A DNA stretch of 64,000 nucleotides from contig JBFOMH010000019.1 of the NCBI GenBank assembly GCA_040830765.1, forward strand, positions 128,001 through 192,000, read 5' to 3'. This document shows, in pieces, positions 38,201 to 62,200 of this stretch. The notes under the pieces are model-generated. The model saw only the letters and a list, made by a program, of their open reading frames with translations, was not told where the DNA came from and did not search any database. The position numbers and the translations under genes were made by a program. Source of the stretch: Puniceicoccaceae bacterium (lineage in GTDB: Bacteria; Verrucomicrobiota; Verrucomicrobiia; Opitutales; Oceanipulchritudinaceae). How positions within the stretch are numbered: the stretch's first letter is position 1; every line of letters starts with the position of its first letter.

Positions 38201-41200
38201 ATCGGCATCATGGTCCACACCGAGGATGGTGTGGCTGACCGTGGTCGAGCCGTCGAGGACGATTGACCAGATATCACCGATTGCGGGTGTACCACCGAGC
38301 GTGAGGGAAATGGAGTTGAAGGTCTGCTGGGTGAAGATGCTGCCCACCGGCTCAACCTCAACACCCGTGACAAAGGCGTTTACGGAGTTTTCAAGGGTCA
38401 GCTCATTGCCGATGGCCTCGGCGCTGAAGGCGGAGATAAAGGTGTCTGCCGAGCTGGTGATGGCCAGTTCGAAGGCAGCGGCAATGGCAGCAAGGTCGTC
38501 ACCTGCCTGGACAGTGTACTCAATGGTCTTGATGGTGGTGAGGACCTGCAGGCGGAGGACCCAGGTCTGACCTTCAATAACCGGACCGAGCAGGGTCAGG
38601 GTAGCGAGTGTTGAGTAACCGGTGGCGTTGTTGTCAGCATAGCCATTGGTGTCCACTCCCGCCTTGACCGATAATGGAGTCGGCAGGTTGCTGGCTATGA
38701 GGATAGTGTCACCGGAGGCACTGGCGGTAAAGCCGGCCAATGCTTCAACTTCGGCTGCCAGCGCGGCCGCGATGGTGGCGATACTGTCCGGTGTTCCGGA
38801 ACCGGCATCAAGGATGGTGTAACGGACAGTGACGGAGTTATTGAGCGTCAGGGTCCAGACATCACCAATGACCGGGTCACCTCCAAGGCGGAAGTTGACC
38901 GCATTGCCGGCCTCCGGCTGAACGGTGATGGTGCCACCGGTTCCAGCGCTGTCGGCGAGCTGGATTTCCAGCGAAATTTCCGGAGCGGCGGCGCCAGCCA
39001 TGACATTGATGACGATAAGGGTGTTGCCGACCGCAATAGCCACCTTGCCCGGTTCATTGGCATTGATCTCAGCCGCGATGAAGGCGGCGATGTCAGCCAA
39101 GGTGGTAGTCGTCGTAACTGGGAAGCTGCTTAAGAAGGTATCGATGGTGAAGTCCCACTGGTCTCCATCAACCGGTGTGCCGGTGAGGACGATGGAGGAA
39201 GTGGCGCCATCAACCAGGTCGAATGTACCTTCCGGTGCCTGGACCGGACTGGTGACACTGAAGGAAACCAGGTAAGCGGCTCCGGATTCGCTGACGATGA
39301 TGAGCACGTCACCCAGTGAGGTGGCGGTAAAGTCATCGTTAGCGTTGATGAGTCCGGCAAGGTATTCGGCGATTTCGGATACTGAGGTAAGAACGCCGCT
39401 GCCGGTATCTTCACCCACCGTGTAGAAGAAGGCCGGGAGATCATCGATAACGACATTCCAGGTATCTCCGTCGATCAGGTTGCCACTGAGACGGACCATG
39501 GTAGTGGTTGCGGTCTCAGAATCGATGGTCGGGTCGGTGATCCGAACCTTGTAAGTACCCGTGGCGGCCTGGACGAAGATTGTCTGGATTTCAGAAATGG
39601 ACGGCATGCCCAGACCGGTCAGGGATTCACCGGTCAAAATTCCGGTGCTGTTGCCGCTTTCACCGCGGTCGTCGAGGTAGAGGACATCTTCATCCGTGTC
39701 GTCACCACCGATAATGACCAACAGGGCGCGGACCGTGTCGAGTTGTGAGTCATCATTGCCATCAACGGATTCCGTGGTGGTGGTGAAGCCAAAGACATTG
39801 GGCAGGGCCTTGCTGCCGACATAGAAGGTGTCTGCTCCGGTCTGGCCGTCGATGATGGTGTGGCCGTCGATGGACTCAACGATAAGGCTGTCATCACCGG
39901 CACCGAGGTAGATGTTGGTCGCGCCGGCGTGGGTCGACTTCACGGTGAAGTTGTCGTTACCGGTTCCAAGATAGATATTCAGGACCTCAAGGTCGCGGTA
40001 CTCGATACCGGCCGGCAAGGTGCGACCAGCGATGACCGTTTCAGGCGCCATGCCCATGCCGGTCAGTTGATCCGCCGTCAGGATAGCGACATTATCGGCC
40101 GGGCTGTTGTTGTGATAGACCGTCATGGTATCGACCTGGTCCGCCTCATCGACACGTGTGTTCAGGTTGACCGGGCGGTAGAAGTACTCATCTCCCGGAC
40201 GCGGTTCATTGAACTCACGGATTTCGATAATGGAGACGGTTCCGACAGGCGTGATCTGGACGGAGGTATCGAATTCCTGGGCCTCGAGATTGACGATGGC
40301 AACCTGGTTGCCAATCGCCACGGCAGTGAAGGTAACCACACCGAAGGCACGGACATGGGCAGCCAGGGCGTTCGCTACATCCTCGATCGTGTCACCTTCC
40401 TGGACCACATAGGAATGGGTGGTGGAGAAGGTTCCATCGTTGAGGAAGATGGACCAGACTTCACCGGCGAAGACCGTGTTGGTCCCGGGAACGGTGTTGG
40501 CATCGGCAAAACCACTCAGGGTCACGACCGAACCAACGCCGTCAACGGAGCTCGAGGCCGCGTTTTCAAGGCTGAAGCTGATACCGGCACGGTTGACAAC
40601 GGTGAGTTTTCCGTCGGCAACGAAGGCGGTGAATTCCTCGTCAGCCGCGACATTGATGCTGGCTGCCAAGGCAGTCAGGATAGCATCCGCTGTTTCCCCA
40701 TCTGCGGCGACATAGGTGTGGACGCTGGTTTGTTCACCGATTCTCAGTAAAGTGGTGTAGAGCTGTGTCAGTCCTCCTGTCAGGGCGACTGGAGTTGCAA
40801 TCTGTCCAGTCTGGGCAGTTGGGATGACAAGGGATTCCGTGATGCGGATATCCGGTTCGAAAGTGGCCTCACCAGAGGACTTGATGGTGTACTCAGGCTC
40901 AGTCGGTTCGGTAAAGTCAGTCCCGTCGGTATTGATGATAATGAGGACCTTGCCCTCGGCATAGGCCGCATGGCTGTCGGCACCGGAATTAATGGCTTCA
41001 GCGAGGGCTTGGGCGATATCGAAGGTCGTGTCGCCGGCCAGGACGGTGTAATTATAGTCCTTGGTTGTCGCCTCACCGGGCAGGGTCACTTGCCAGACAT
41101 CATCCACAACCGGCAATCCGGCAAGGATGGCACTGCGGACCGGTGCATTGGCATCGTCAACGGTAACCGCGTAATTGCCACTGCCATCGTCGGTGCTGGC

Positions 41201-44200
41201 TGCAGTCGACGCAGGAGCGATGGTGACCTCGGCAATGAAGCCATCACCGGAAGCACGAACAATAACAAGGCTGTCCCCTTCCACCATCGCGGTTAAGAAG
41301 TCCGGGCTTTCAGCAAGGGTGCTGCCATTGATCTCGTCAGCAAGGTTCTGGGCCACGTCTTCCAGGTTGTCACCCGCAATCACCGTGTAGGTGAATGACG
41401 TTGCCGAGCCTGTCTTGACCCCGAATGCATCAACATCCCAGATACTGACAGTCCACTCTTCGAAGGCCAGCGGTGTTCCGGTAAACTTGATCGAAGCTGC
41501 CGGCAACTGCGGATTGATGTCGCTGAGGTCGTCCGTGTTTTCCTCGGCGGGCAGGATCCGAACCTCGACACTGAAGCTGGAAGTGGCATTGGCGATAACG
41601 AGGGCATTGCCATTGGAGATGGCGTACAGGTCACCACCGGTTATCAACTCAGCAAAGACAGCGGCAACGGAGTCCCAATTATCAGCCACGACTTCCTCAC
41701 CATCAACCAGGTAGGTCTCGCCGATGGATACGCGGAAGAAGGAGCTGCCGTCGATGCGGACCGTCCACAGTTCACGCGGCTGGACGAAGTCAGTGAAGGT
41801 CACGGTGGCGGCACGCGAGGTCAGGCCATCCGTGGAGGCCGGAGCGCTGGCCCCGGAGTCGATGGACAATGTGGCGGACAAGTCAGCACCATCGCGATCG
41901 ACAATGACCAGTTTGGCATCGCGGTAGCCAGCTGTGAGGGAAGCTGCGCCGGTCGAATTGATTTCAGCGGCAAGTTCCTCGGCGATGTCACTAAAGGTGT
42001 CGCCAGGCTGGATGACATAGGAGAAGTCAACCGGCGTACCGTCATCCAGGCTCAGGGCCAGGGTCCAGGTGTCGCCGTCGGTTGGCGTGCTCTGGAATTC
42101 GATGGAAAGGCTGGTCGGGGCCGGACTGGCGGGGACGGGTTCGTAGCCACTGATAGTGCCGATGGAGAATGACGGCGTAAAGGCTGCACCGGTCCGGTTG
42201 ACGAGTATGAGGTCGTCGCCGTCAACCAGGGCGGTGTAGTTCTCAACGGCAACCCGTGCGTCGCTGTTGATAAGGGCGGCCAGTCCAGTTGCGGCTTCCG
42301 CAACCGAGGAGATTGTGGTTCCATCAATTTCAACACTCCAGGAAAGGCTGCCAATGGATACGGTCCAGATTTCATCAACGACAACTGGTCCGGTGAGATC
42401 AATCTCGGCAGTGTAGGTTGAATTATTGACCGTGTAGGCGCGGGCTGCGGTAACGGAAGATTCAACCACCAGTGGTTCACCAATTACGTTGACCACACCA
42501 AGCAGCACTCCCTCGCTGATTGCTACATAATCCCCGCCGGCGGTATTAATGGCGTTGGCCAGTTCGCTGGCGATATCGCTGAGGGAGTCGCCCTCAAGGA
42601 CCGTGTAAGTGAAGGCTGCACCAACGCCAGGCAGGGTTATGGACCAGATTTCATCGACAACAGCAACACCGGTGATTTCGACGGTGTTGGTAGTCGCTGT
42701 GGAGGCATCGATACCAACAATGGTTGCCGGCAGGACATCCACGTCGACGGAGAAGGCTGCCCCACCCGTCCGGAATACCTCGATCGTATCCCCAACGAGC
42801 GTTGCTGTGTAGGGGCCAGCGGTATCGGCGTTGATCAAGTCCACAAGACCCGTGAGGATGTCCGTGAGACTGGTGCCTGCGGATTCAAAGGCGTAGGTCG
42901 AAGTCGTGGAACCGGAAGTAAGCTGGATGACCCACTGCTCGTCGGCAATCATGCCGGTCGCGGCGGTGAAGTCCACAGTGGCCTTGCTGGCTATGGTCTC
43001 ACTGCGGAGGGCCGTTCCGGCAGCAACCGTCTCGAGGGCCAGCGTAAAGGCATCATCGGCCCGGTTGAGGATGTAGAGCTTGGAACCGTCATAAAGGGCG
43101 GTGAAGTTGGAGGCATCCGGATCGGTGGAATTGTTGAGTTCATAACCCAGCATCATCGCCACCTGCTCGGCGGTATCATCCGCATCCGCCGTGTAATCAA
43201 CAAGGATGTGCTCACCGTTGATGCTGATATCGATCGAGAATACTTCCCCTTCGCGGACTGGCGTTCCGACATCGACTTGTGCGGATTGCATCGGCAGACC
43301 GGTGTCGGTGAGCGCGCCGGCCGGCAAGACGTCATAAGCAATACTGCTGACCCGGGTGGAGCGGTTGACGATGTAAATCATGTCACCTTCCGGCATGGCA
43401 GTAAATTCGGACTGACCTTGGGCATTGATCGCGACTGCGAGGCCTGCAGCGACGGCAGCGAGGTCATCACCCGGCTGGACAGCATACTTCACCAGGATGG
43501 TGGTTTCGTTGGCACCCGTTCCAATGGTCAGTTCGGCGGTCCAGATTTCTCCTTCAACGAGGGATGTTGCAGTGGAAAGCGTGTTGGAATTGGCCGTCGC
43601 GGCAACCGCTCCGGCTGTGATCGCGCCATCAAGACTTCCGGCCACCGGTGTAATGCTGAAGCTGGAGGTGAAAGCGGTATCCGTCCGGTTGACAATAACC
43701 AGGATGGAACCATCACCGAAGGCCGTGTAATCGGCGAGGGTTGCGTTGGCATTGATGAGGTCCGCCAGATTGTCGGCAATATTATCCCGTGTATCAACCA
43801 GCTCGACACGGTAACTGACAGTCGTTCCGTCGACAGTGGCCTTCCAGACTTCACCAGCCTTTGGCGTGCCGGAGAGGATGGCGGTGGCAACGGAGGTGAT
43901 GGCCGTACCGGTCATGCTGCTCCATGCGCTGGTCGAGGCGGTCAGCGGAACGAAGGCGGTTACGAGCGAGGAACCGTCCGGACCGGCAATGATAACCCGT
44001 GGTCCGGATTCGACTGCGGCAAATCCATCAACAACGGTATTGATCTTGGCCGCGAGGATACGGGCGATGTTACCAAGCGAGCTGGCCACGACATCGGTTG
44101 TCCCGATAGTAAAGGTTTCGCCGACGGTAACCTCGAAGATCAAATCGCCGCTACCGGCATTGTCATTGAGTGTCACTCTCCAGATGTCACCCGTCACGGC

Positions 44201-47200
44201 TGAGCCGGAGAGCTGAACCATGAAGGTGGCCGGATCATCGAGGGATTCCGTCAGGCTGGAGGCTGCCTCAACAGTAAGATCCGGGGCGGTGAACGCGGTT
44301 CCATCCCGCTTCACGACTACCAGGGAGGCGATCAGGGATGGGTCAGTGGAAAGGATCCTTGAAGAGGCACTGAAGTCGCCGAGACTGCCGTGGGTGCGGA
44401 TTCCTTCAGCAAGGGCTTCAGCCACGTCAGCCAGCGTTTCATCAACCCCAACTACATGGAAGACGTCCGTGCCGTTGACATTGATGGTCCAGGTCTCACC
44501 GACTTGGGCAGTTCCGTTGAGCACGTAGGTGTAGGCGGTGACGTTGCCGTTCTGCGTCGTCGAGGCATTGTCGGCAGCGGCCGGGGAGACCACGATACTA
44601 GTCACGAAACTGTCAGCGGTACGCTTGACGATGTAAAGGGTGCCATCGGCAGTGACCGCATTGAATTCAGACAGGTTGCCATTGCCGTTGATCTGATCTG
44701 CGAACCATTGGGCGATTCCCGGGAAGGTGTTGGTGACACCATCAACGGTCAGTGAGAAGGGCTCTCCGGCAACGGTCAGGTCGAAGGTCTCGCCAACGAC
44801 TATGTCGCCATCCACAAGGACACCGTCCACCAGGGTCTTGCCGAAGGTCACGGTCGTGGTACGGGCGGTGACGGTATCGACATCACCATAACTGCCGATT
44901 TCAAAGGCGTTTCCAAGACGGTTGACGATTACCAGCAGGTTGCCATCGGCTGCTGCGGTGTAGTCGCCCAGCGAGCCATTGCTGTTGAGGAGGGCTGCCA
45001 GGCCAGCTGCGATGGCGCTCGAGCTCAGGGTGCCGCCGCTGGTGTTTTCAAATTCAATTTCCGTTCCCAGGCCATCCTCGACTATTACCAGGCTCCAGAA
45101 TCCACCCGCCACAAGGTCATCGACGATAGTCACGACAGCAGAGGAAGCGGAAGTGGTGTCAACGACCGCGCCGGATGCCGGTGTCACTGACAGGCTGAGA
45201 TTGACGCTGCCACCACGCGTGTTGACAACGATGAGGAGGTCACCTTCCGCACTGGCAACGAGGTTTACGGAATCGTCCGTGGCGTCCGCATTAATGGCCT
45301 CGGCGAGGGCAGTCGCGACGTCGGAAAGGGTCGATGCAACCGTAATGCTATGGCTGACTTCGAGATTACCAATGGTCGCCGTCCAGGTTTCACCGATGGC
45401 CGGTTCACCGACAAGGGTAATGATGCTCGTACGGCCAATCGTTGTTCCGATGGAACCGGAGTCCGCGTCGAAGCTGGCCGTAAAGGCACCATAGGTACGC
45501 TTGATGAGGACAATTGCATCACCATCAGCAACAGCAGTGAAGTCGGCACCAAGGATATTGGAAATGGACTGTGCCAGCGAGGAGGCGATATCCTCGAGGG
45601 TGTCTCCCGCTTCGATGATGTGGGAGACACGGCGCACTTGGCCGTCGAAGTCGAGTTGGATGCCCCAGTCGTCACCGACCACCGGCGATCCGGTCAAAGT
45701 CATGACCGTGGAGGATGCGGTTCCGCTGATGCCGTCGTCCTGGTCGAGGGCGAAAGCGCCTGCGAGGGTGAAACGGTAACCGGCCTGATGGACAACAACC
45801 AACTGGGCGCCATCCGCGATAGCGGCATAATCGGCCGGGGCGAAAGCGTTGATGAGTGCTGCCAGGGTTTCGGCCAACTCGGCCCCGGACTGGGCGGAAT
45901 CACCGGACTGCTGCACCACATGGGTAAGGACATGGGAGAGTCCATCACCAACAAGGGTAATCGTGATCAGCTGTCCGACAGGCAGGTCATCCGACAAGGT
46001 GGAGATACGGATAAACGGATCAACACCGTCGGCAAGGACACCTGCCGGCAGGATGTTGATACCCGGCGTAAAGGCCACATTGTCGCGATTGAGGATGTAG
46101 AGCTTTTCTGCCACTGAGAGGGCACTGTACTGGGCAAGGCCGTCCCCGTTGACCGTAATGGCCAGCTTGGCGACCACATCCTCGAGCGTTTCGAGTGTCT
46201 TCAGGGTATCCGGATTGTTATCGGCATCGACCAGCTGGACAATGTAGGAGACGAGACTGTCGAGATTGCCACCCTCAATTTCCAGGGCGAAGACTTCGCC
46301 CGCAACCGGAATGCCACTGAAGGTGCCGCGCTGGACTGCGCTTTCCATGGCGGTCATATCCGGGGCAAAATCACCTGTCCGGCTGCCAGCGACGGTTGTC
46401 ACGGTAGCCTCGACGGAGAAGGCCAGGCCATCCTCATTGACGATGAGGAGATTCGACCCATCCGCGAGGGAGACAAAGCCGGCATCTGTTGCGTCGAAAG
46501 AGGTGTTGATATGGCGGGCCAGCTTGCGGGCAATGGCATTGCGGGTATCACCCGGGAGGACTGCGACCGCATGGGTGCTGACGGTCGAGCTGGAGCCATC
46601 GTCAACAAGCTCGATAAGCCAGATTTCATCCACTGTCGGGGCCCCTTCAAAGAGTACCGAATAACCGGTCGCTGCCGTATCCAGTCCCCAGATAGTCGAG
46701 GTTTCAGTGAAGGGATCAAAGACCGTGCTGGTCGTGAAAGTGGTGTCACTGTGGACGATGATGAGCTTGGCGCCTTCACTGGTGGCAAGATATGGAGCGG
46801 CAGCGTTGGCATTGATGTCGGCTGCCAGGATGGAAGCGATGACCTCAAGGGATTCCACTGTGTAGCTGAAGGTCGTGCCATCAACGACGACAGACCAGGT
46901 TTCCCCAATACGGGCCGTACCGGTAAATTCGACGCGGGTCACATTCGGGGAAGCGGTCCTCGGAATCATCTCACCATCGGTCTCGAGAATCGGCAGGATC
47001 TGCGAACCAGTGCTGAAGCCGGGGGCGACCTCGGTTTCGATAACCAGCACATTGCCCTGGACGCGGGCGGTGAAGTCACCGAGGACGGCGTTGATCTTCG
47101 CAGCCAGGCCACTTGCCACTTCCGCCAGCGGTACCGTCTCGCGGACAGTGTGGGAGTGGATTGATTCAACGTCCCCACCGAGGGCAGAGTCGTAGTAGCT

Positions 47201-50200
47201 CAGCTCGACGGTCCAGATGTCACCGATGACCGGCGTACCGAAGAGGTCGATGGAACCGGTGTAGGCCGGATCCGGATCCGGGACAACAACGGTGTCGTTC
47301 GGTGAGATTTCGAAAGTGGTTGAATTGGTATTGCCGGCAACATTGTTGATGACCAGGGCCACGCCAACCGAGAGGGCCGAGAGATTGCCAGCCGGATCAG
47401 CCTGGACCAGAAGGGCCAACTGCTCAGCGATGGTTTCGAGTGTGTCGTCCTCAACGATGGTGTAACTGAAGGTCTTGTCCTCGCCGTCAATGTCGAGGTT
47501 GAGGCTCCAGGTGTCCCCTACCCTGACATCGCCACTGAGGATGACCGTACTGGTGTCTTCGGAGGGCCATGGGGCATTGAAGGTGACATTGTAACCCGAG
47601 ACGATCGGCTTGAAATTGGACGGAATCTCATCGAAGAGGCTGAAGGTAAGCAGATCCAGCGGGTCACCGGGTAGCATGGTCACGGTGACATCGGAAGGGC
47701 CGGAGGCATCGGTGAGAGTAAGTTTCCAAGCGCCAGCGAGGTCGGCGGCGTCGTCCGGATCATCGAGGAACTCAAAGGCGACGACGCCCCAGTCGATACC
47801 GAAGAGATAGGAGAAGTCCTGGACGGGTGTTCCGCTGATGGAGTCACTGCCATTGCCACCGGAGCGGACAACTTCCACGCGGAACGGAACAACGGCATTG
47901 CTGTTGCCGGAGTCGACCACACTGATCCGCAACTTGGCGTTGCCCAGGATATCAACGAAGCCTTCAGCAGTGAAGACGTAGTCCTCGATACCGGTATCGT
48001 CATAATCGCCGGTATTCAGCTTTTCAGCCCATTCGCGGACAATCTTGGAGAGGGCCTTGTTGTCTTCGCCCACATCATAGACGATATCCAGATCGGACGT
48101 GGCATCGTCCCCGAAATTGAACATGAGGGTCCATGTTTCCGTATTGGCTGCAAAGCCACCAAGACTGATTGTCGCCTCAAGCCACTCGATGGTGGTATCG
48201 CTATCGCTGTTTACATTCGCGAAACCAACCAGATCCTGATCGGGTGTACCGCTAAAGAGGACATCATCGGATGTGACATTCCCAGTGCCCCTATCGAGAT
48301 CAACCTTGAATGGCTCATCCCCGCCAATGGAAAGGATTTCCTGGGAGATGCCAAGGACGTCGAGGAACCGATCGAGGGCCGGGCCTTCAAGCCACGTAAA
48401 CTCGAATGGGAATTCGTTCATCCGCGGATCGAATCCAGGACGCTCGCCGTAAATGTCATTGAAGTGGAATGACTCACGGTCGGTCATGACCGCATTGCCG
48501 TTGTTGTCGATGCTGATGCCGGTCACCGTTCCATCGGCCTGTGGATCATTGGTTTCCTCCGGCAGGCGGAATGGATCGTTGAGGAAGCGTTCCTCACCAA
48601 CAAGGGCACCGCCGACAATGCTGAGCGGACCACGGATGCCGTTAACCCGTTCCTCGAAGGCCGGGAAGACAAGGGCATCACTGCCATCAATCACGTTGTC
48701 GTCGATAGCCTGTATCCAGACTGTGCGGACAACATCCCAACCGTAGTCGGTGGCATCGGCATCCCCAGCGGGAACGAAGCGCAGTTGCGGAATGATGGCA
48801 GCATCACCAACCGGTGCGACAATGTTCGTCGGGCCAGTGCTGGCGCTACTATTCAGGCCTTCGAGTCCCACGAGGACGCGTGCATCGATGTCCTTGTTCT
48901 GGGATTCGGTGGCATTGCTGATGGTGATGCTTCGGCCTTCGACGAGGACGTCGTACTGGCTCAGGTCAAGCTGGTTGGCCAGCATCATGGCAATGGTGGA
49001 AAGGGTATCACCGAACTTGGTTGTGTATTCAACGCCGGTGCCCCATGCGGCATTCGGATTGGAACTGATGTCGCGCAGTTGCAGGGTCCAGATTTCGCCA
49101 GCAGTAACATCTCCCTTGAGGGCCACCTCGACCGATTCGAAGAAGCTGGTAGTCGGGGTTTGGGAGATGCGGTTGACTTCCACCTCGCCCCATCCAAGGG
49201 CCCGGCGACGGTAGTCGGAATCACTGCCTGTGTCGACATCGACACCAATCTCAAAGGCGGTAAAGAATGGCGTGTAGTCAGCCTCGTTATCCGTCGTGAT
49301 GAGGATTTGTGGCGTTTCCCGCATGGAAATACCGGCGGAAGCCCATGTTGTTCCACTACCCTTATCCATGACTGCCGAGAAGATGACTGTCTGGTCAGGA
49401 TCGAGGACAAGGATGGTCTCGCCATCAGCAACCGCCTTATAGCCGGCCGCTGTGTTACCGTTGATCAGGCTGGCCAGCCCAAGCGCCACATCAGACAGGG
49501 TATCGGTGGCCGTGGGCTCATAGGTAAAGACCGTGTCGCTGCCATCATTGAGGGTCAGGCGCCAGAAGGTGCCCTGGTCAACCGAACCGGAGAGGACAAG
49601 GGTCATGCCCGGATCAAGGTCCGCGGTGTAATCAATGCCCACAGAGGTGTTCAAGATGGTGATCTGGCCCGCAATCGAAGCGGCAACTTCTGTTAGCGTC
49701 TGTGGCGTGGTGGCATTGATGAAGAGACCGACGACGTCGCTCTTGGTGGCATGCAAGGCTGCGAACTCGTCCGAATTAATTCCGCCATCGGAAAGCTTTT
49801 CATAGACCATGTCACGGAAGGCATCGACGCTGATGGTGCTCTCCGGACCAGTCAGGGTCATGAACCACACCTGGCCTCCTGCCGGTGTGCCATCGAACTG
49901 GACAAGGGTGCGGTCTGTGGCAATACGGACTTGCTCGGCAAGGTTTTCGCCAAATGCCTCATCCGCATTGAAGGCCTCATCCGCATTATAGGTCCGGGTT
50001 TCAACCGGCAGGATATTGACGATTACCTCATCCGTCGGGTTCTTCGTAAGGACGATATCCCAGGTATCGCTGATAAGGTCGCCATCGTCATTGAGGAAGC
50101 TTGAATACGGCAGTGGCAGGGTTTCCTCGGAAATCCGGTAGGTGATGTCGTACTTGCTGTCGAAGAGCGGGACTTCACTCCAGTTGTCAAAGCCGGATGT

Positions 50201-53200
50201 CGAGACATAGAAGGCTTGGCTGGTCGGATCGTAGTCGATGATTGTACCGGCCTGCCCGGCGGCCTGCCCTTCTACAACCTGGATACCTCGTCCGGTCAGC
50301 TCGATGGCGGCAAGATTCGTCGGGTGACCCGGGATGGAAATGATCAACTCGTAATCGAGTCCCGGATAGATGCCGGCATACTGGTATTGCGGGTAGAACT
50401 TGTCGTAGGTGACGACGGAGGATACCCGGATGAGGAACGGTTGTGCCGTGGTCGGCGCTGGAATCAGGTACTCGAGGAAGGGATCATATGGGCTGTTGCT
50501 TCCCTCGTCGACCGGGACAGAGGAATCCGGGACATACTTGGAGGAAGCCAGAATCGAGCCGCTGGTCGGATTGATCAACTCAATGACCGGGCTAATGGTG
50601 TAGTTGACCGTTTCGAGAATCGGCACCGTCTTGTAGACCGGGATGAATCCGAAGAGGTAGTAATCGACGACTTCCTCGTAACCGGTCACGACCTGGAAGC
50701 TGCCCTTGACCAGTTTGGTGTTGTCGATATCGAAAACGGCAAAGACATCGCCACCCCGTTCGGCGCGGAAGGCAAATGGGTTGAGGCCATGACCACCACC
50801 GGGCTTGGTCAGGTCCGGCGCACCGGATGAGCCGTCCTGGTCCTCGATGGTGATGGAAGTATCGGTGGCACTGGCCTTGTAAAGTCCGAGTGCATCCACG
50901 ACCTTGGCCAGTTCGTCCGCCACCGTCTTGAAATTGAGTTCACCGAGCTGTGTTCCCTCCTTGAGGCCGCCCGGGACTTCCCAGAAGTATTCCACGTTAT
51001 TGAGGAAGACCGAGAAGACCTGACCGGCGGAGACATCGCGCAGACCAGCATCCCCTTGCAGGTCGAAGGTGACCGAGAAGAAGTGTGGATCGCCGTCTCC
51101 GGGCCACGTTACAGCCGTGGTAAAGTCTTCTGCACCATTGGAGCTGTCCGGATCGACGAAGGCATGGACGCGGACCCATCTCAGGTCACCGAGTTCGACC
51201 AGGTTACCGTCGGAGCGAACGACCTTTACGGAGCCGTCGGCCTGGGCGGTTGCCGAAAGCACACCGCTGAGCCCGGTCGATGCATCATCAAGGGCCGAAT
51301 CGAGGAAGGCCTTGACGGCATCCGCGATACTGGTGGAAGCGCCGCTGGTGGTGCCAACGGTAAAGGACGGATCCGGGGTTTCCCCGTTGTAGGACAGGAT
51401 AAAGGTGTCACCTGCGTAGAGTGGTGTGGCATACCCGGCCACATCCGGATGGATGATCATTTCCCAAGGCAGCTTGACCGTACCGGAAAGCGTGGCGCTG
51501 GCAGAGACATCGACCGGATCGACAAGCGGTGAAGTGACGGTAAATGAGCCTGGGCCGAAGATGAAGAAGGAAGTACTGGTGAGGGAAACCGTGGAGTAAT
51601 CACCCGTTACCAGGGCCTTAAGGCTGGTTGTCACGGAGGAAAGGCTTGGATTGGTGCCACTGACACCACTCTTCAGCGGGACAGGATAGCTCGGGTCCGT
51701 GCCGGAGCTCAGGTCAAGGCTCCAGGTCTGGCCTTCATAGACGACTCCACCTAGTTCAACGAGATAGGCACGGACACTGGTACCCGACTTGACATTGGTG
51801 TCTGTCGTACCGTTCAGATCCTCAGTGAGGGTTGCCGTGAAGGCGGCCAGGCCGGAGTCGCGCCAGATCGTTAGAATCTTGCTTGATGAGTTGTAATCAG
51901 CCGAGTAGATGGTGCCATCGATTGCGGTTTCCAGGGCGCCTGCCTTGGCATCGACTCCGGTGAGACTGTTGGAGGTAATGTTGATATTACCGATGCCGGT
52001 CAGGGCCAGTATCCAGTCGTCGTTATTGTCTGCCTCAAGGCCACTGCTGAGGTTCAATGTCACATAGGCCGTGCCAGTAGCGTCCAGTGTACCCCCTATC
52101 GGCTGGGCATCGACCTCCAGGTACTGGAAGCCGCGGTTGCCGGTCCAGGTAGACTTGAAGACAAAGGTGATCTTGCCGTTAGAGGAAGCCGTGACCGAGG
52201 TGAATGGATCGCTCGGACCGCTGAGAATATTAAACTTGTTGGCAAGGTCCTCGGCCACGCCGATAACTTCATCGGGCAGTCCGGAATTGATGGTATTGAG
52301 CTGCGTCAACAGGCCGACATTACTGGTCTTTTCAATGTTGGCCACCTTGAGTCTCCAGTCCTCTCCCTGATGCGGCGCGCCCCCAAGGTCGACAGTCAGG
52401 GTGGTCCAATTGATTGCGGTATAGGTCGCGCCAACTGGCAGGGAACCGGTCTGACCGGCAGGGGTGCCGGAGATCTTGGCACTGCCATCCGGATTGATGC
52501 CGGTTGTGGTAATGGAGACCGAGACACCGGCAGCAGCCACCGCATTGAAGGTCACCTTGTCGGCTGATCCGCCAACACTGGAAATGATGCCACTAAAGGC
52601 GGCTGCTCCAAGGGCGGTGCGGATGCCTGCCGCAACCTGATCGGGAGATGTGTAACCAGTAAGGATGCTTGCTCCGGTAGGTGTGGAGGTTGAGTTGATG
52701 GTTACCACCCATGTATCGGCGGCATCGATACCAGAGCCATCAATGTCAATCTCGACATTGCCAAAGAGGATATCGGAGCTTCCAGCGGCATTCTTGGCGG
52801 TTGTTGTCCGGCTGACCGTTCCCGCATTATTCACGGTATGGACAAGCCCGTCGACACTGCCGGCCTCACCACGACCCTTAAGGACAAATCCTCCGCCGAG
52901 GTTGCTCACGGTGAGCGTATTTGTGGTGGCATCGACCGAGTAGCCTTCGATGAATCCGTCGGTCTGGGCATCGAGGATTTCCTGGGCCAGCGCGGCGGCG
53001 ACACCGGCTGCTGAGGAATTGGTGCCATCGACAGTGACGATGAAGTCGCGGTAACCCAGACCCAGCTGATAAGTGTCGCCCACCTCGACCTTGTCGGTCA
53101 ACTGGAAGGTAACCGTGCTGTAATACTGGGAACCATCGGAGCTGCCGGATGCTCCTTCGACCTCGTCCGGATTGGCATCCACGTGGAACTTGTAGATGTC

Positions 53201-56200
53201 GTAGGACCAGTCACCGGTACCGACCACCTTGACATACGGTGTGGTGTAGTCGATTCCCGGACGATCACCCGGCTCGCCAGCGAGGTGGATGTTGCCCACG
53301 GCAGGATCGTAGAAAGTGAAGAAGCTCGAACCGTCGGAACCATCGCCATCCAGTTCCTGCCCGGTGGAGGAATCAATGGCGCCGCTCTGGTTGTTACCGA
53401 ATTCATCTTCGAGCACCGGCTCGGGAGCGAAGATAAAGGAATCCTCGGCATGCTGTTCAATGGAGAAGTGCAGTTCGTAGTCGACCCCTTCCGGGACCCC
53501 GTCGATACCGACAGGCCAGGCTGCCGTGACCTCAACGTAGTACGTACCCGGTGTCTCAATGAAGTAGGACAACTGGCTGTCATAGAAGTAGCTGCTACCC
53601 GGATCCAGCGTCCAGCTGAACCAGGAACCTTCCTCGAGGAGGGTCGGCGTGCGGGGCTGATCCGGATCCAGTGGATCGACCAGTTCGTACAGCTTGAGCT
53701 GGCTGGCCCAGAACTGGGAATCGCCGATATCGAATCCGTGGTCGATGTCGAAGAAGACTTCCAAGCCCTTGTATCCAACGGTGCTACCGCTGTTCTCGGA
53801 CTTGTAGGCCTCCACCGATGCCTCGTACATTTCCTCGGTGACCTCGAAGGAATAGAAGTCCGCATTGCCGTCACCCGTGCCAAGAATGGTAGTGTGCGGC
53901 AGGAGATTGGACTTGTAGATATTGGCCACGAAAGTGGTATTCCACTTGGAGGTATCGATATCCTGCGGGATGAAGACAGAGTCATGAACCTCTTCCTGTT
54001 CCTCGCCGATGGAGGTGCCGAAGTCGCCCACAAAAATGACCGCATAGGTGCTGCCATCGGAAACCAGCTCGACCTTGATGAAGATACTGAAGGTCTCGCC
54101 GCCACCGGTCTTGTCGACTTCAATGTATTCGCCGGAAGATGTGGCCGTGTAATCGGTCAAGGCATCAATTTGTCCCGCAAGGGCACTCGCAATTGCGGTA
54201 AAGGAGGTGCCGATGATGGGTGTTGCTGTGCTGACAGAGGTACCCGTTTCATCAACGAGGTGGGCCGTCCAGCGCATGTTCGTGGTCGGTTGCTCAGGCT
54301 GGATTCCGTCGAGGGTCGCATTGGTATCTTCCGGAGAGAGACCGAGGCGGAAGCGGGCGAGGTCAGTCTGGGTCGGGAAGCCATTGCCAAGGAGGACCAA
54401 CTCCGTCGGCTCGATGACATCGGTTGACTCGAGGGACTGGATAACGAGTACGCCCGGAGCGTCGTTGTCGGCAACAATGACGTCGATGGAGTTTGGTACG
54501 GTGACTTCACGGTTTTCACCAACCACATACTTGTACTCGACGGTGTTGAGGTCTTCGCCCGCCGTCACGGAAACATCGCTCTGGGCATCGACCTCGGCCT
54601 CAGCAGGCAGGGTGATGACAAGATCCAGCGTGAAGGCTCCAAAGCGCTCGACCTGGATGCTGGCCGTGTCGTCGTCCAGTTCGGTAGTCCCGCCATCGTT
54701 ATAGGTAACGGAGGCTGAGTAACCGGTGAAGGCGTCAATCTGGGTTTCCAGATCGTCAACGATGTCCTGCAAGGTCTCATCCTCACCGACGGTATAGCTG
54801 GCCTGCACACCCCAACCCATCGCAGTGAGGTCGATGGTGTACGTTTCGCCTTCTTCCGGTGCGCCGTTGAGGCTGACCGATTGGACATCCGGGCTGGCGC
54901 CGAGGATGAGCGTCCAGGCCGACCCCTCGGCATAGGCGAAGGTATCATTGGTGAAGTCGACGTGGGTCAGCTGGTAAACAAGCTTGGCGTAGTGGGTCGG
55001 GCTTTCGAGGGACTCACCCGTGCTGTGGGCCTTGGCGCTGCCTCCGGAATCCGTAACATCGACTTGGGAAGCAGACTCGGCCAGCAGGACATCCAAGCTG
55101 AATGGCGTGCCATCGGTGGTGAAGATGACCACGGATTCGCCAGTTGTGCTTCCATCTATCTCAGCACTGCTCTGGACGGTGCTACCGGTCACGGAGATGC
55201 GGATTGAGAAGTAATCCGTGCCCTTGTTGACCGTAAATTCAGTACCCGTCGGATCGGTTGCGGTAAAGTCGGTCAACTCGTCAATCTTGTCGGACAACTG
55301 GGTTGCGATGTGACTCAAGTTGTTGCCGCTTTCCACGGTGTAGGAAACCTCGATGCTGTTGTCCAAGGTCACGGTCCAGACATCTCCCTTGAGCGGGGTG
55401 CCCTTCAATTCGACATCAGCGGTGGTGAACTTGGTGGCAAAGCGGGTTCCACTGAGGTTGATGACGTTGCTCAGCCCATTGGCAACATCCTGCAGGGTCT
55501 CTGCGGAGGCCGTTGTGCCCTGGCGGGTGTAGCGGAATTCCGTGTCATCGAGGGTGACAATCCAGACCGAGCCGGTAACATCATCAACGGCTGTGTCATC
55601 AAGGGTGACATCCGCCACGTTCCAGGCCTTGACGCTGTCGGCCGTGACGATCTGGAAGCCGAGGGCAGTCTCGCCACTGAAGGTGGCCCGGCCCTCGGAC
55701 TCACCAGAGGCGTAGAAATTGACCTTGAGGAACTTGTTGTTGGAACTGGAAAGTTCGATCGATGTGCCGTCCAATGAGGCGTCGACACCATCCTGCCCGT
55801 CAATCTTGCCGACCAGGGCGGAGGCGATCGTGGCGAGTGTATCATCAACATCAACTGTATGGAAGAAGGCCCGGCCATTGATCGTAACAACCCAGGTTTC
55901 CCCTTCTGCCGGTGTGCCGGCAAGGTCAATATCGACAGCCGTAAACGGTGTCAGCAGGTTGCCCTGGAAGGCAGGACCAGTGATTTCCACCGTATCCGTT
56001 CCGGAATCACCTTCATAATCGGTGTCGATGTTGCCATCGATGATATTGGCGATGCCGTCGACGACGTTGTTCTTTGTCACGCCGAGGAAGAACTCCATGT
56101 CGCTCTCGGATATGCGGTGATTAATCCGGGCGTAGTGTGTCCCCTCCTTGGCGTTGTCATTGACGGCACGGACAACCACTTCCTTGGGCTGATCCCAATC

Positions 56201-59200
56201 CGTCTGGTCGAAGGTCACGGTCACGGCACCTTGTACCGGAACGCCGTCGACCTCGGTGATGGTCTGGGTATCACCGTCAATTTCCGTAATGAGGACATTG
56301 CTGTTCGGAGTGAGGGTGATTTCGACCTGACCGGTCGGCCGCTTGGTCAGGACAATCCAGTAATTATCAGACTGGAGGAATCCCGGTGCATCTGGATCAG
56401 AGCCGGCTGCGACGGTGAATTCCCAATCGCCGCCTTCCCCGACGATCGGGGAGAAGATGCTTGCCGAGTCCACACTGGTACCATCGTGACCGGCAATGAG
56501 GACGGCTGCCGAATCGTCATCGACCACAGTGGCCACGACCCCAAGGATGGCCAATCCGTCATAGGCGCCACCATCAGCGGCACTGGCTCCCTGCTGGGTG
56601 CGGTGGACAATGGTGTACCCGTTGGTTCCCTCGGCCAAGTTATCAGCCGGGGCAAAGACAAAGACTTCCTGCGGAACGAACCAGTCCTGGCGGGTAAAGG
56701 TCAGGGTGAGGCCGTTCTCGTCCGGTGTGCCCGAGTCGCTGGTGGACAGGCCAACGCCCTTTCCACCTGCGGCGAGGACACTTTCACGGATGGCCACCGG
56801 AGCAGCGGTGACAAGGACCGTTTCTTCGGGTGAACGGGTCAGGACGACCTGGTAGGACTGGACTACCAGTGCGACTCCGCCACTTTCAAAGACCCGGATC
56901 GGGCCCATGGTCGAAAGGACCACTACATCCGCTTCATCGTTATCGCGCACATCAGCCGAGACATCCCGGACAAAGACGTTCTTGTATTCCGGATCGTCAG
57001 TGGTTGTGGTCTGGATGACAAGGCCGCTGTGCCCCTCGAGATTGTTACTGACGACGGTAACCTCGCGGCCGCCACTGCCACCGATGCTGAAGTTGTCGCT
57101 ACCCAGCCCGCCAACAACTTCGAGGGAAACTTCCTCGCTGGTACTCTCGATGAAGAAGCGGTCATTCCCCTCGATGGCGTCGACGACGATGCGCTCAAGC
57201 CCGCTGTAGGTAACAAACAGACCGGCCCCGTAGACTCCCTGTTCGTTAATGACAAAGTCATCACCAAACTCAGTGCCAATCACGGTCAAAGTATCGAATC
57301 CGTCACCACCCTCAATCCGGACCGGGGCATTCACGGTAAAGGAAATGAAGTCAGCACCCTGGCCGCCGTTGATGTTGGTGAACGGTGCCTTGGGATCGTT
57401 CGGATCGACCTTGACGAAGGCCCGGACGGTAAAGGTGTCATCATCCTCATCCCCAAAGAGGAAGAGCTCGGCCTTGTTGCTGTAGACCGTAAAGTTGTCA
57501 TTGCCGGTGCCGCCGAAGAGGGTCGAGCTGAAGCTGATACCATTGGACAGGAAGCCGCGGGTAATCTGGGTGGTCTCGAAGTAGTCTTCCTCGGCGAGGC
57601 CATTATCAGGATTGTTGCCATCCCGGAAGGATTCGAAGACCTGTCCGATCTGGAAGGTGTCGTTACCGGCATCACCGAAGACCGTGACCGGGGCCAGGTT
57701 GTCATCAAGGACGAAGACGTCATCGGCATCCCGGCCAAAGACTTCGACCGCACCATTGATGTCGTAGTCGTAGTTGATGCGTTCGATGACACCACCGGGG
57801 ACCGGTTCGCGGTTTTCATCAACCTCGATAGCGGCAACCATACCCTGGCCAATCTCCTTGTTGGCCCGGAAGAGGAAGTAGTCGACTTCGTTGGTGCCGT
57901 AGATGCGCAGGCGGTCGATGCCCGGATCGCCGCGGGACTCGTCGAAGACATTGATACGGGAGGAAATGCGCCCAGCGAGGCCGATTTCGTATTTGTCACT
58001 GCCCTGCTGGCCATGGAGGGTCAGTTCGCCGTCGATACCGCTTTCAAAGGTCTGCTTGCCACTGCGGTCGTAGTTGACCCGAATGATGTCGTTCCCGTTA
58101 CCGGCACTGACAGTAGTCGTACCGGAAATGCTACGGATGTTCACGACATCGTTAACGCCATTGATAACCGGTGATTCATCGCCCATGTCGATGGTGGTGA
58201 CACCGGTGTGGGTTGAATCGAGGAAGAAGGCGTTGTCATTGTCGCTGAGCCAGATGCGCAGGAGTTCGAAGCTGGTGTAGTTGACTCCCAGGGTCATGCC
58301 CATGCCGAGGATTTCGTCACGGGTCAGCTCGCCTGCCTCACGCTCGGTATCACCGGCATCGTAAATCTTCAGGGTATCGGCGGTCCCTTCCCCACCCTCG
58401 ATGGTCAGGCGTCCAAGGATAGCATTGACGTTGCCGTCGAGGGCATCGATCAGGGTACTGGTCTGGCCGAGTTGTCCGGCTGTGCTACCGACACGGACAG
58501 TGTCATTACCATCACCGGTGGAGAGGTTGAGATTCCCGTCGACGCTTTCGATATTGATGATGTCATCACCACCGAGACTGGTCAGGTTCGTGATCGAGTT
58601 ACCCGCGTGGGTGCTCTCCACGGTGAAGTAGTTCCCGACACCATCAAGATGGATGTTGAGCACTTCCAGCGTGCTGTAGGTGACGCCGCCGTTCGGGCCG
58701 AAGAGCAGATTGCTGGTACCGGCCACGTTGTTGCGCAAGGTCGTGGCGGTAAGGGTACCATGATTGATCGGAATCAGGTCAGTATCCCCGGAGTCGTCAA
58801 AGGAGACGATGTCCTCGTCAAAACTGCCTTGGCCGTTGATGGTCATCGGTGCCCTGATATTGTCGAGAACACCCCGGACAAAACCATCGGCTGACGGATC
58901 ATCGACACCATCAACCGTTGCCGTACTGCCGACGTTGACAATGTCACTGCCCGCACCGGTGTTCAGGATGGTGTTGGTATGGATAGCCTGGACAGCGATC
59001 CGGTCGTCACCGCCCCGGGTATCAATTTCCACATTTTCAACACCCGTATGCGTGATGAGCATCGAGGAGACAGTACTGGCTTCAATCTGGCCCTTGGTGT
59101 CCAGAACCGGCACTGTCAGGGTCATCCAGTCGGCAGAGTCGGTACCGGTTACGACGAGGCGGTCACTGCTGTCAGAGACGGTACTGTCGATGTGGACCTG

Positions 59201-62200
59201 GGCGACACTGTCGAGCGGCATGGTGAGGAGATAGTGCTCCGGATTGCCACTGCTGTTGCCCTGATTGTCGAGGTGGGCTTCGCCGCGCCAGTTGACCACT
59301 GAAAGTGTTGTTCCGGCGACGCGGATGGAACGGTCGAGGTCGTTGACGACGATGGTATTGTTGCCACCCATGCCATTGATCCAGGCAATCTCGAACTGAC
59401 TGGCGATGTCCTCGACAATGGTTCCTGAGGCCCAGCGATCGCCTGGGTCGAAGAGCTCGCTGGCAGCGTTCTTGCCAACCGCAAACTGACCGGACCCGGC
59501 GCTGTTTTGCAGGGTGCCGACTACCAGTTTGTCATCGAAGAGACCGATATCGGAATCGAACTGCTCAACGAGGATATCCGCGGAACCGGAGGAATCGATG
59601 AGGATGTCCTTCGAGAGTCCGCCAGTGACGGTGTCGTTACCGGCACCGGAATCAATAAAGTCTTCAAACTGCGAGCCGATGATGCGGTCGTCATTATCGC
59701 CACCAAAGAGGCGCAGGGCAGCGTAATTTGTCGTCAGGCCGGCGATGACTGGATCAGCGAAGATCAGGTCGTTGCCTTCTGCGGTATCGACGTTGACTGT
59801 ATCGCCCTCGGCCCGGACCGAGTCAGATATGACGATCCTGTAGAGTTCGCTTCCAGCAGCGTTGGGCATGAAGAGCGGCGACCCGTCGATTGTGTAACTG
59901 TCATAGAAGGTCAGGCTCATGCCCGGGTAGTTATCCCAGTCGCTGTCGCTGATCCTGATGTAGTCTGCAAGGGCGTTACCGTTGATGGTGATGGTGTCGG
60001 CAACCTGGTCCGGGCTGACATTGACAACGGGTTGTTCGACCAGTTGACCATTGACTTCAACAAGCTCGATACCGCCCTCGGTAACAATCTTGCCGGCACT
60101 GATGTTGACCAGGTCGAGGCCGGAACCGTTGAGGTGATTCACGGTGAAGGTATCGGCAGCACCACGGCCCTCGATGACCAGGGATTCAAAGCCCTTGCCA
60201 ATAATGGAACCTTCAGGTGTGCCGCCCTGGACATTGACCAGCTTGAACTTGTCGCCGAGGAGGGAGGAGAGTTCAAAATTGTCCTCGGTCTTGATGCCGT
60301 AGACGCGAAGTTCATCCCCAACCGTGTCGGGCAGGGACTGGCCGTCTGATCCACCTTCAATCTTGACCAGCTCAAGGGCGACATAATCCCAGTGGATGAC
60401 ATCATTACCGGCATCACCATAGATTTCATCGATGCCGCCGCGGCCGTCGATTTCATCATCACCAGTGCCACCGCGGATAACATCGTTACCGGCTCCACCA
60501 AAGATGATGTCGTTTCCGGCTCCGCCGTCGATGGTGGCGCTGCCCGTTCCGTCGAAGACGATGTAGTCAAAGCCACTTCCACCAAAGATGGTGGCATTGA
60601 TACTGGTCGGGGCCGTGTAGAAGTAATCGTCACCAGCATCACCGTAGAGAACGGCGGAACCCTTGCCTTCGTAGATGACGACATCATTGCCGCCACCGCC
60701 GTGGAACTCGATATCCGAGACAACATCCGGTCCGATGTAGATGTGGTCATCGCCCGGACCTGCGTAGGCAACGATCTTCTTGACCCCGCGGAACTGGGTT
60801 TCACGGCCACTGAAGAGAACCTTGATGGTTTCCCCGGTTTCGTCACCGCCAACATGCTCGATCTTGTACAGTTCGGCCCCTTCGCCTTCACCGATACCAC
60901 GGATGGTATTGCGATCACCCATGTTGAGATAGAGGACCCCATTGGCCGCCACCGGATCCCAGACCCGGAAGTCACCAGTCGGATTACCGGCAAGGTAGAC
61001 CTTACGCGGCAGCTCGATGTAGCCAAGGGTGAAGCTCATGCTGACCGAGACGGAGAAGAAGAGGAATTCAACTTCTGCACTGGCCCGGACAATGATCGGC
61101 ACGCGGCCTTCGCCTGAAGCAGTGACGCTGGCGGAAATGGTTACCCCGGCAAAGGTGATGCCGAAGGCCCGCAGCTTGGCCCCACCGGAGAATTCGACGA
61201 GGAAGAAGAATTCGGTCAGGCCCGGGGTGCCGATGACTTCGCGTTCACCAAAGGCGACCCGGAAGTGGAAGCTGGCCTTGAGCCCGAAGCTGTCCGTACC
61301 GAGGGTCAGGCCACCATCAAGGGATATGTCGAAGTGGCCCTTGTAGTTGAACATGCCATAGGCGGAAAGCGTGACCAGGCCGAAGAAGTCCATGCTGGCA
61401 TTGAACTCGACGCGCCATGAGCCAGCCCCTTCATATCCGACCTCAAGGATGAATCCGGCATCGAACTTGAGAACCTCGAGGAAGGAAACGGAGCCATTGA
61501 GGGCAATGAGGAAACTGTTGGGAGCCATCGTGATGCCGACGAGTGTCCTCGAGGCGCCGGTGGTGTTGAGCTGCAGCTTGCCGGAGGCTTTAATCTTGAT
61601 GACTTCGAATATATTGACGTCCAGGCTGACATCGAGGAGGAGCGCCAGTCCGGGATTGGAATCCGTGTAGATGGCCGCCCCACCCTTTGCCGAGACGGTT
61701 ATCGGACCCAGTTCGATATCAATTTCAAATTCGATGGAGAAGACGTTGGCCTGCATCGTAATGATGATGCTTCCGGAGGCCGAGGCCAGTCCGAGGAAGG
61801 TCACCGAGCCACGCATACCCAGCTTGAAGCCTGCCTTGACGACAACTGTTTCCCCGTCCGCGGTGGTCAGGGTCTTCTCCTGCAGACCGCCGATGTAAAG
61901 TTCTAATGTTGCTTCAACGCTGAAGCTGAGCCCGATATCGCCACCGAAGCCGGCACCGATCGAGAGGTCCACGTAGGCGGCGAATCCGTCGCCATCGACC
62001 TGGAAGACCGCATCGATATCGAATTCACCGATACCAAACAGCTTCATCGTCGCGGAAGCGCGAATCTCAATGCTGAATGGATCCGGGCGGAAGACGAATT
62101 CAAAGCGGCCCTCAATATCAATGACCGGACCCAGGCGCAGGTGACCCTGCAGGACCAGGCGGAGACCGGACTGGATGGTCACATCCCCGAAGAGGAAGAA

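Follow-up and report, generated by a model that had tools for sequence, protein, structure and literature searches.

We analysed a 64,000-nucleotide stretch of DNA from a Puniceicoccaceae bacterium (contig JBFOMH010000019.1, positions 128,001 to 192,000; hereafter the window) and concluded that its largest gene, G1, very probably encodes a giant exported RTX-repeat protein in which small beta-sandwiches act as split hosts, interrupted by runs of modules. The splits, the complementarity of the pieces, their conservation and the stepwise length of the inserts are established by our comparisons, and two of the hosts, named Calx2 and PPC2, are predicted from structural models to rejoin across their inserts. 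The chain would exit from a loop of its host, either a Calx-like sandwich of ~116 residues or a domain of the PPC (pre-peptidase C-terminal)/collagen-binding type of ~190 residues, pass through 1 to ~14 further domains, and then return to complete the host fold. In Calx2, ~5 beta/alpha modules of ~100 residues each would occupy the F-G loop. The first loop of a further host, Calx3, would contain one module, the intact domain PPC1 and PPC2, itself split by ~8 modules, while its second loop would carry 3-4 more, and at least one module would itself host another. The hosts would serve as junction boxes for side arms that depart and come back, with the PPC-type domains as candidate binding heads. 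The number of modules would set the length of an arm, and gain or loss of whole modules would tune it.

The window is filled by two giant genes, both on the minus strand, as are all the features described below. G1 (23237..64000) covers 13,587 residues within the window and extends to the contig end, giving at least 18,661 residues; its 5' end and start are missing, and the N-terminus falls beyond the contig end. Residue numbers preceded by w are counted from window base 64000. The nested region (48674-56500) sits inside this single open reading frame. An earlier note on this DNA had described a Russian-doll nesting of Calx-beta-like, PPC-like and stalk modules here, and all 11 motif strings that it quoted or implied were present in the minus-strand frame of G1, a few bases from where it had placed them. 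A Pfam scan of G1 detected RTX repeats (HemolysinCabind) in the last 4,787 residues (E 1.2e-39) and in the first 4,600 (E 3.1e-8). The RTX nonapeptide repeats thus lie towards the C-terminus, and they are also present as 27-bp repeats in the DNA.

Because G1 encodes a highly repetitive protein and is cut short by the contig end, we considered a chimeric contig, produced by mis-joined repeats in a metagenome-like assembly. We judge this extremely improbable, since the 40.7-kb frame within the window is open throughout and independent records, drawn from several sources and phyla, show the pieces in the same order. At the DNA level the modules do not form repeats, and the only arrays seen were three with 27-bp RTX units.

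Homologues were collected by a HMMER scan of 1.84 billion representative sequences with w2375-3560 as the query, which gave 892 proteins at E<=1e-3, including 97 at <=1e-30. From 150 of these matches we built homologue-only profiles, with G1 left out: cx from 953 Calx-like copies in 108 proteins, cx2 from 250 correctly phased Calx-like copies of tandem arrays, and ppcF from 56 intact PPC-like copies in 48 proteins. E-values of these local profile searches refer to a two-sequence database. A first self-BLAST had aligned the intact copies with the proposed pieces in a collinear but weak manner (E 0.001-0.008). For the excision check that the earlier note called for, the pieces were joined in silico and the score was compared with controls carrying random segments. 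We observed that each set of pieces fused into one match, covering profile positions 1-116 for Calx2, 40-172 for PPC2 and 1-82 for Calx3.

Calx2 lies directly after Calx1, an intact Calx-like Ig sandwich (56501..56938, w2355-2500) that matched cx2 over positions 1-116 (56.7 bits) and cx over 2-116 (83.4 bits). Its N piece (56075..56500, w2501-2642) comprises strands A to F (profile 1-105) and ends ...FLGVT, with the motif HRISESDMEFFLGVT at 56119-56075. The F-G loop insert follows (54506..56074, w2643-3165), with 523 residues and ~5 stalk modules. The C piece (54461..54505, w3166-3180; profile 101-116) is strand G, ...IDVIVADND, in which the motif VPNSIDVIVADND marks the resumption at 54499-54461; the Calx-like sequence pattern ends ...V.V.DND. 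With cx, w2545-2647 matched positions 1-105 and w3169-3184 matched 101-116, the latter not significant when taken alone (E 0.72). Excision of the insert raised the score from 63.3 to 75.2 bits over the full length (1-116), a score reached by 0 of 200 random-segment controls.

When we examined the homologues, Calx2 was contiguous in P0043, P0087 and P0052, and was followed directly by ...STDVIEP and PPC1. We regard these empty-site homologues as the decisive evidence that the second Calx-like domain is split, as the earlier note had held. Both flanking anchors of the site could be found in 38 homologues, nine of them without an insert. Stalk-containing inserts were present in 22, with lengths of 88 (one homologue), 171-229 (12), 274-316 (four), 373-385 (two) and 512-515 residues (three). 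The remaining seven had gaps without stalk matches and were set aside as uninformative, because they probably reflect mispaired anchors in tandem Calx arrays. Between homologues, the length of the insert changes in ~100-residue steps.

The structure of w2498-3200 was modelled with AlphaFold2 (AF2) from a 36-row alignment, with a mean predicted local distance difference test score (pLDDT) of 86.3 and a predicted template modelling score (pTM) of 0.76. The model places the strands of the N piece at residues 47-133 and strand G at 675-680. Among the structure representatives, ~35 single-domain Ig-like chains aligned with it over 87-119 residues (most over 92-106), and these alignments begin at model residues 1-4 and finish at 679-687. 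The far strand is therefore predicted to form one sandwich with the N piece. The Calx-beta domains were among the matches, with Z 8.5, a root-mean-square deviation (rmsd) of 3.0 and 105 of 116 residues for NCX1 CBD1 (3gin_A), Z 8.5 for CALX CBD1 (3ead_A) and Z 7.5 for the integrin beta4 Calx-beta domain (3fq4_A). A whole-model Foldseek search returned only long multi-Ig chains, with TM ~0.1.

We further evaluated the two PPC-like domains. PPC1 (53426..54028, w3325-3525) is intact and matched ppcF over positions 1-177 (E 8e-63); its ESM features were closest to PF04151 clusters (0.94, 17 of 30 hits, 159 shared features), which is in the range of distant relatives. PPC2 follows directly and is in two pieces: an N piece (53165..53425, w3526-3612; motif GTGDWSYDIYKF at 53221-53186) and a C piece (50303..50758, w4415-4566; VFDIDN at 50737-50720 and DYELIISIPGH at 50356-50324). 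The insert between them (50759..53164, w3613-4414) has 802 residues, with ~8 stalk modules in normal phase. The two ppcF matches are complementary, w3585-3642 covering positions 40-88 (E 1e-4) and w4458-4562 covering 101-172 (E 1.9e-9). Excision converted the separate scores of 29.8 and 35.3 bits into one match of 56.3 bits over positions 40-172. This score was reached by 2 of 200 controls (maximum 97.1), probably because their random segments had sampled the intact twin.

The split of PPC2 is kept in 11 homologues, where PPC1 runs straight into the N piece and the C piece follows 800-1,300 residues further on. In the nine in which the insert was measured, all nine hold 817-1331 residues, and an empty PPC2 site was found in none of the orthologs. 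A word-based homologue search with the PPC2 construct found only P0027. P0072 and P0140 have tandem intact PPC-like copies.

An AF2 model of w3524-4566 (38 rows) had a pLDDT of 73.1, with the C piece mostly at 73-90. The best superposition was with the collagen-binding domain (CBD) of ColG (5iku_A; Z 10.7, rmsd 2.2, 112 aligned residues), which runs over model residues 3..1033. It was followed by ColG 1nqd_A (Z 9.7, 109 of 111), the ColH CBD 3jqw_A (Z 9.2) and the B. anthracis PPC domain 5sv5_A (Z 8.0, 101 of 105). The next unrelated row that was not a module match, 6v4a_A, had Z 7.5, so that the top three stand 1.7-3.2 above it and 5sv5_A 0.5 above. Since the structural alignments span both pieces, the halves are predicted to rejoin in the model, and the fold would be of the PPC or collagen-binding type. 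The earlier claim of a split second PPC-like domain is thus borne out by the profile matches, by the homologues and by the model. As for the domain labels of that note, the PPC fold was recovered structurally, PF03160 and PF04151 were not detected by Pfam, and the Calx fold ties with other Ig-like folds.

The third Calx-like domain had been described as broken twice, and its pieces indeed cover successive parts of the profile. Piece 1 (54404..54460, w3181-3199; cx2 1-18) is strand A, APGVLVIQSLESTDVIEP, conserved in 25 aligned homologues, with the motif TDVIEP at 54424-54407. Between this strand and PPC1 lies a single stalk module (54047..54364, w3213-3318), and among 42 homologues this site has no module in 20, one in 17 and two in five. 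Beyond PPC2, a conserved connector (50075..50302, w4567-4642), aligned in 10 homologues, leads to piece 2; its ~76 residues follow the pattern G..I.I..G.G.GQ...I..YD......W...pd.tS.f.I. Piece 2 (49931..50074, w4643-4690; cx2 23-46) opens with DTWDIVLTKNPT at 50068-50033. The second insert (48788..49930, w4691-5071) has 381 residues and 3-4 stalk modules, and piece 3 (48674..48787, w5072-5109; cx2 57-82) reads QLRF...WIQAIDDNVIDG, with WIQAIDD at 48718-48698.

With cx2, the joined pieces of Calx3 scored 31.6 bits over positions 1-82, in comparison to 20.9 bits without the first piece, and 0 of 300 controls with random 22-mers reached this score. An earlier, badly phased profile gave a weaker result (13.8 to 16.8 bits; 5 of 200 controls reached the score). 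The second break was confirmed by P0057 and P0094, in which pieces 2 and 3 are contiguous, with 13 and 21 residues between the anchors. Nine homologues have 13-436 residues at this site, the occupied ones 94-436 residues and 1-4 modules. A complex prediction of strand A (w3178-3215) with w4600-5145 (alignment A7) scored 0.04 and 0.03, where the mark is 0.32, and speaks neither for nor against the first break.

We observed that Calx3 stops near profile position 80-84 in every homologue, and that positions 83-116 were never seen. In place of the last third there is a conserved stretch, ...DG.DA..FPAF..RVN.IRGPL.I.GG. An orphan last third of a Calx-like sandwich (56924..57034, w2323-2359; profile 80-116) is present upstream, directly after an RTX-like beta-roll and before Calx1, and the same orphan third occurs in P0043, P0052, P0016, P0012, P0021, P0024, P0026 and P0007. 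The orphan third (80-116) and Calx3 (1-82), both conserved in homologues, are a candidate pair for ring closure, although each already has its own 'E strand plus DD..EG' stretch. A weak match to the first Calx-like strand was also seen at 40153-40245 (w7948-7977, E 0.005), at the junction of the first and second long arrays and adjoining RTX-like GG.G.D turns.

The orphan third bears on the question of whether the split halves complement each other between molecules, so that neighbouring giant proteins become cross-linked in a mesh at the surface. Completion within or between chains would be compatible with the evidence here. The inserts of 523-1443 residues make closure within a chain topologically demanding, and the last third missing from Calx3 has an orphan counterpart upstream. 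However, the monomer AF2 models close both tested domains in one chain (one of them with a pTM of 0.76), and the homologues with an empty site show an ordinary intra-chain domain. We therefore consider a mesh of this kind very improbable.

A second explanation for such short pieces is decay, with the pieces being remnants left by recombination among repeats, and the protein a string of modules with non-functional scars. Two of the pieces have only 15-19 residues, Calx3 is without its last third and Pfam finds nothing. This explanation is nevertheless very improbable, since the pieces, including the short strands, are kept in homologues at 23-45% identity, the junction positions stay fixed while the insert length varies, and AF2 rejoins both Calx2 and PPC2.

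Several observations weigh against the reading of the sandwiches as split hosts. Pfam and NCBIfam gave no Calx-beta or PPC match in the G1 region. Specifically, PF03160 did not match the window protein at E<=1 or at <=0.1, and PF04151 matched neither this protein nor the short homologues P0030, P0041 and P0044, which consist mostly of the PPC-like domain. PF03160 did match the homologues P0009 (2.6e-28) and P0020 (4e-25), where the matches may or may not lie on the Calx-like type detected here. Sequence-profile searches of the PDB returned no sequence relatives for the Calx-like alignment A3 (0 matches) and one irrelevant match (E 0.15) for the PPC-like alignment A4. The Calx-like fold is tied with CEP192 SPD-2 (Z 9.0), pilus chaperones and Ig domains of glycosidases. 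The rejoining in the AF2 models was read from the first and last aligned residues and the aligned lengths, not from inspected coordinates, and in the PPC2 model the N piece has a pLDDT of only 37-69 and the pTM is 0.46. The case for the first Calx3 break is weaker, since its support comes from sequence, a stretch of 19 residues, and the site was empty in none of the homologues. Calx3 may also be incomplete as a sandwich. Finally, by profile, the permuted end halves proposed for the Calx2 insert of G1 (see below) were not significant (9.9 bits; 75 of 300 controls reached the score).

We also characterized the stalk module that fills the inserts. An iterated profile detected 64 copies in G1 and none in the neighbouring gene G2, and the period in the long arrays is ~100 residues. 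One module of the Calx2 model (residues 187-282) superposed on a cyanophage tail protein (8i4m_A, Z 13.7), the A-1(L) sheath insertion domain (8kee_A; Z 12.4, rmsd 1.8, 85 residues, 22% identity), the PhiTE sheath (9cb9_A, Z 10.6), the T7 tail (6r21_a, Z 10.4), the crAss001 capsid protein (7qof_a, Z 9.2) and FliC (4nx9_A, Z 9.0). Overall, these matches had Z 9.0-13.7 and rmsd 1.8-2.9. The ESM leads were crAss_AuxCP (0.90), Flagellin_IN and Phage_sheath_domII. As modelled, the beta/alpha module thus folds like the insertion domains of phage tail sheaths and the outer domains of flagellin. Since the matched ranges are internal in the solved chains, this fold is found as an inserted domain in other proteins too.

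The module matched no sequence family. The Pfam scan of G1 otherwise gave many partial matches to LysM (PF01476), confined to positions 1-17 of 43, and no stretch passes alone. Given this partial match and the fold matches to domains of the sheath-insertion type, we did not assign the module to LysM.

The earlier note had also proposed that the Calx2 insert is circularly permuted, starting with the helix of a module and ending with its strands. Among the 22 homologues with stalk-containing inserts, the first significant stalk match starts at profile position 26-40, in the helix half, in 13; in the other nine and in G1 it is a whole module. The last match ends at position 31-40 in five of the 22, and P0016 has a single permuted module, with positions 38-81 followed by 4-33. 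In alignment A2, the module helix comes immediately after the host ...FLGVT, and the insert closes with Y.Y..G.N, corresponding to the third strand of the module, before strand G. The AF2 model of G1 likewise opens the insert with a helix (146-159) and closes it with strands (646-650 and 656-662). The proposal is thus supported by the homologues and the A2 junctions, and not by the profile search of G1 itself. The arrays of the other three sites begin in normal phase (positions 1-14).

Calx3, PPC2 and the module array within it make three levels of nesting. Two observations hint at a fourth. In the Calx2 insert (55064..55615), a module appears to be split by another module, where an N part (w2796-2852, positions 2-56) and a C part (w2950-2979, positions 60-89) flank a whole module (w2860-2953). 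Excision gave one match over positions 2-93 (37.4 bits), reached by 16 of 300 controls, because random segments often match real modules. In the PPC2 insert, a similar arrangement at 51476..52408 would add the fourth level that the earlier note had counted: two modules (w3977-4156) lie between a module (w3865-3965) and a strand (w4169-4175). Eight matches of the sheath-domain type (~90-118 aligned residues) span residues 340..649-654 of the PPC2 model, so that the strand at 646-652 may complete the module at 342-442 around the two others. No signal was seen for this strand by sequence (15.4 vs 15.5 bits). This fourth level is tentative, drawn from the alignment ranges of one medium-confidence model.

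Outside the nested region, G1 has three long stalk arrays, with ~25 modules at 40261-48175 (w5276-7913), ~24 at 32260-39505 (w8166-10580) and ~3 at 30634-31492 (w10837-11122). In P0057, P0094 and P0016, the counterparts of w5082-5210, w7932-8153, w10581-10788 and w11149 onwards are only 13-33 residues apart. These short gaps indicate that the three long arrays of G1 are absent there too, and that the family has a compact core with variable arrays. Such an architecture would be a branched single-chain display structure that holds the PPC-like domains, which are of a binding type, and the arms off the main axis, much as the split domains of RTX adhesins do.

A wider proposal is that this is a widespread, unannotated family of giant exported proteins with a bottle-brush-like branched chain rather than a linear fibre. 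It combines a conserved core (~3,700 residues in P0057), arrays of one 'professional insert' module at fixed sites that number seven or more and in several cases are loops of tiny host domains, a circularly permuted 'clasp' module that closes some arrays at their base, and growth and shrinkage by whole modules between lineages, here to >18,600 residues. Taken as a whole, we put it forward tentatively, as a possibility that we lean slightly against. Full-text searches of the literature found no description of this giant-protein family.

The named relatives come from Prosthecobacter, Thermodesulfobacteriota, Accumulibacter and Burkholderiales, and are labelled 'hypothetical' or 'RTX toxin-like'. 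Relatives of PPC1 with 54% identity were seen in metagenome-assembled genomes of Accumulibacter and Burkholderiales (L001 1951-2535; L002 6001-6570). Within the order, PPC1 was detected in one of 151 sampled genomes, which is the source genome itself, and in none of the other 150 at E<=1e-10. This patchy distribution could be due to transfer or to poor assembly of giant genes.

The upstream part of G1, beyond the window, contains near-identical repeats of ~165 residues. The downstream gene, G2 (window 3-23009), has 8,811 residues in all and matched RTX repeats (E 8.8e-96), FG-GAP, LRR and a Golvesin_C domain in Pfam. Its N-terminus carries LERLEPRLLLSGEG, with an LEPRLLL motif at the start. 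This motif hints at an export route other than that of the RTX-adhesin type.

The homologues provide a natural and well-sampled series in which the same hosts have 0, 1, 2, 3, 4 or 5 inserted modules, and this should be useful for examining how a small sandwich can accommodate inserts many times larger than itself. In this giant-protein family at least, the 'stalk' repeats would be side arms of a compact core and not the trunk, which would change how such proteins are annotated and modelled. The split-domain rule for finding the binding domains of RTX adhesins would also be extended to a family of Verrucomicrobiota, Thermodesulfobacteriota and Betaproteobacteria. If the bottle-brush proposal is true, it breaks the rule that an insert is the smaller partner of its host.

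The arrangement in G1 can be compared with several known systems. In RTX adhesins (AhLap of Aeromonas hydrophila, FrhA, MpIBP), split Ig-like domains project other domains, and a three-level nest is described in which a beta-roll is split by a vWFA domain that is itself split by an insert (PMC12077191; see also PMC10865825). Like these adhesins, G1 bears RTX nonapeptide repeats, and in Calx2 a sandwich of the Ig-like extender type is interrupted and the chain is predicted to return and finish the fold. In the adhesins each split domain projects one compact ligand-binding domain, whereas the inserts of G1 have 1 to ~14 domains and 381-1443 residues, made mostly of one module; they vary stepwise among homologues, with several sites in one small host. 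For the Si3 insertion of the cyanobacterial RNA polymerase beta' subunit RpoC2, a survey of insertions reports six-level nesting, and it states that insertions are consistently smaller than their hosts (PMC13114784). Si3 shares with G1 a small repeated domain that is inserted recursively, domain within domain, but its fold and biology are different, and the inserts of G1 are ~3-12 times the length of their 116-190-residue hosts.

At the level of single domains, the rejoined PPC2 covers 101-114 residues of the 105-117-residue CBDs of the clostridial collagenases ColG/ColH and of the PPC domain, from which it differs in its lack of a PF04151 match, its length of ~190 residues and the split of one copy. 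The Ig-like sandwich of Calx2 superposes on the Calx-beta domains (3gin, 3ead and 3fq4) over 99-105 residues, but the window copies have no PF03160 match and the Z scores tie with those of other Ig-like folds. The module shares its fold with phage sheath insertion domains, T7-type nozzles, crAss auxiliary capsid proteins and the outer domains of flagellin and FliD; unlike in those proteins, 64 copies of it occur in a single bacterial protein, in tandem as well as inserted. Together, these comparisons lead us to regard G1 as a variant, unusually deep and large, of the nested builds known from other large adhesins, on account of its several sites per host, inserts 3-12 times the size of the host, stepwise insert length and permuted clasp.

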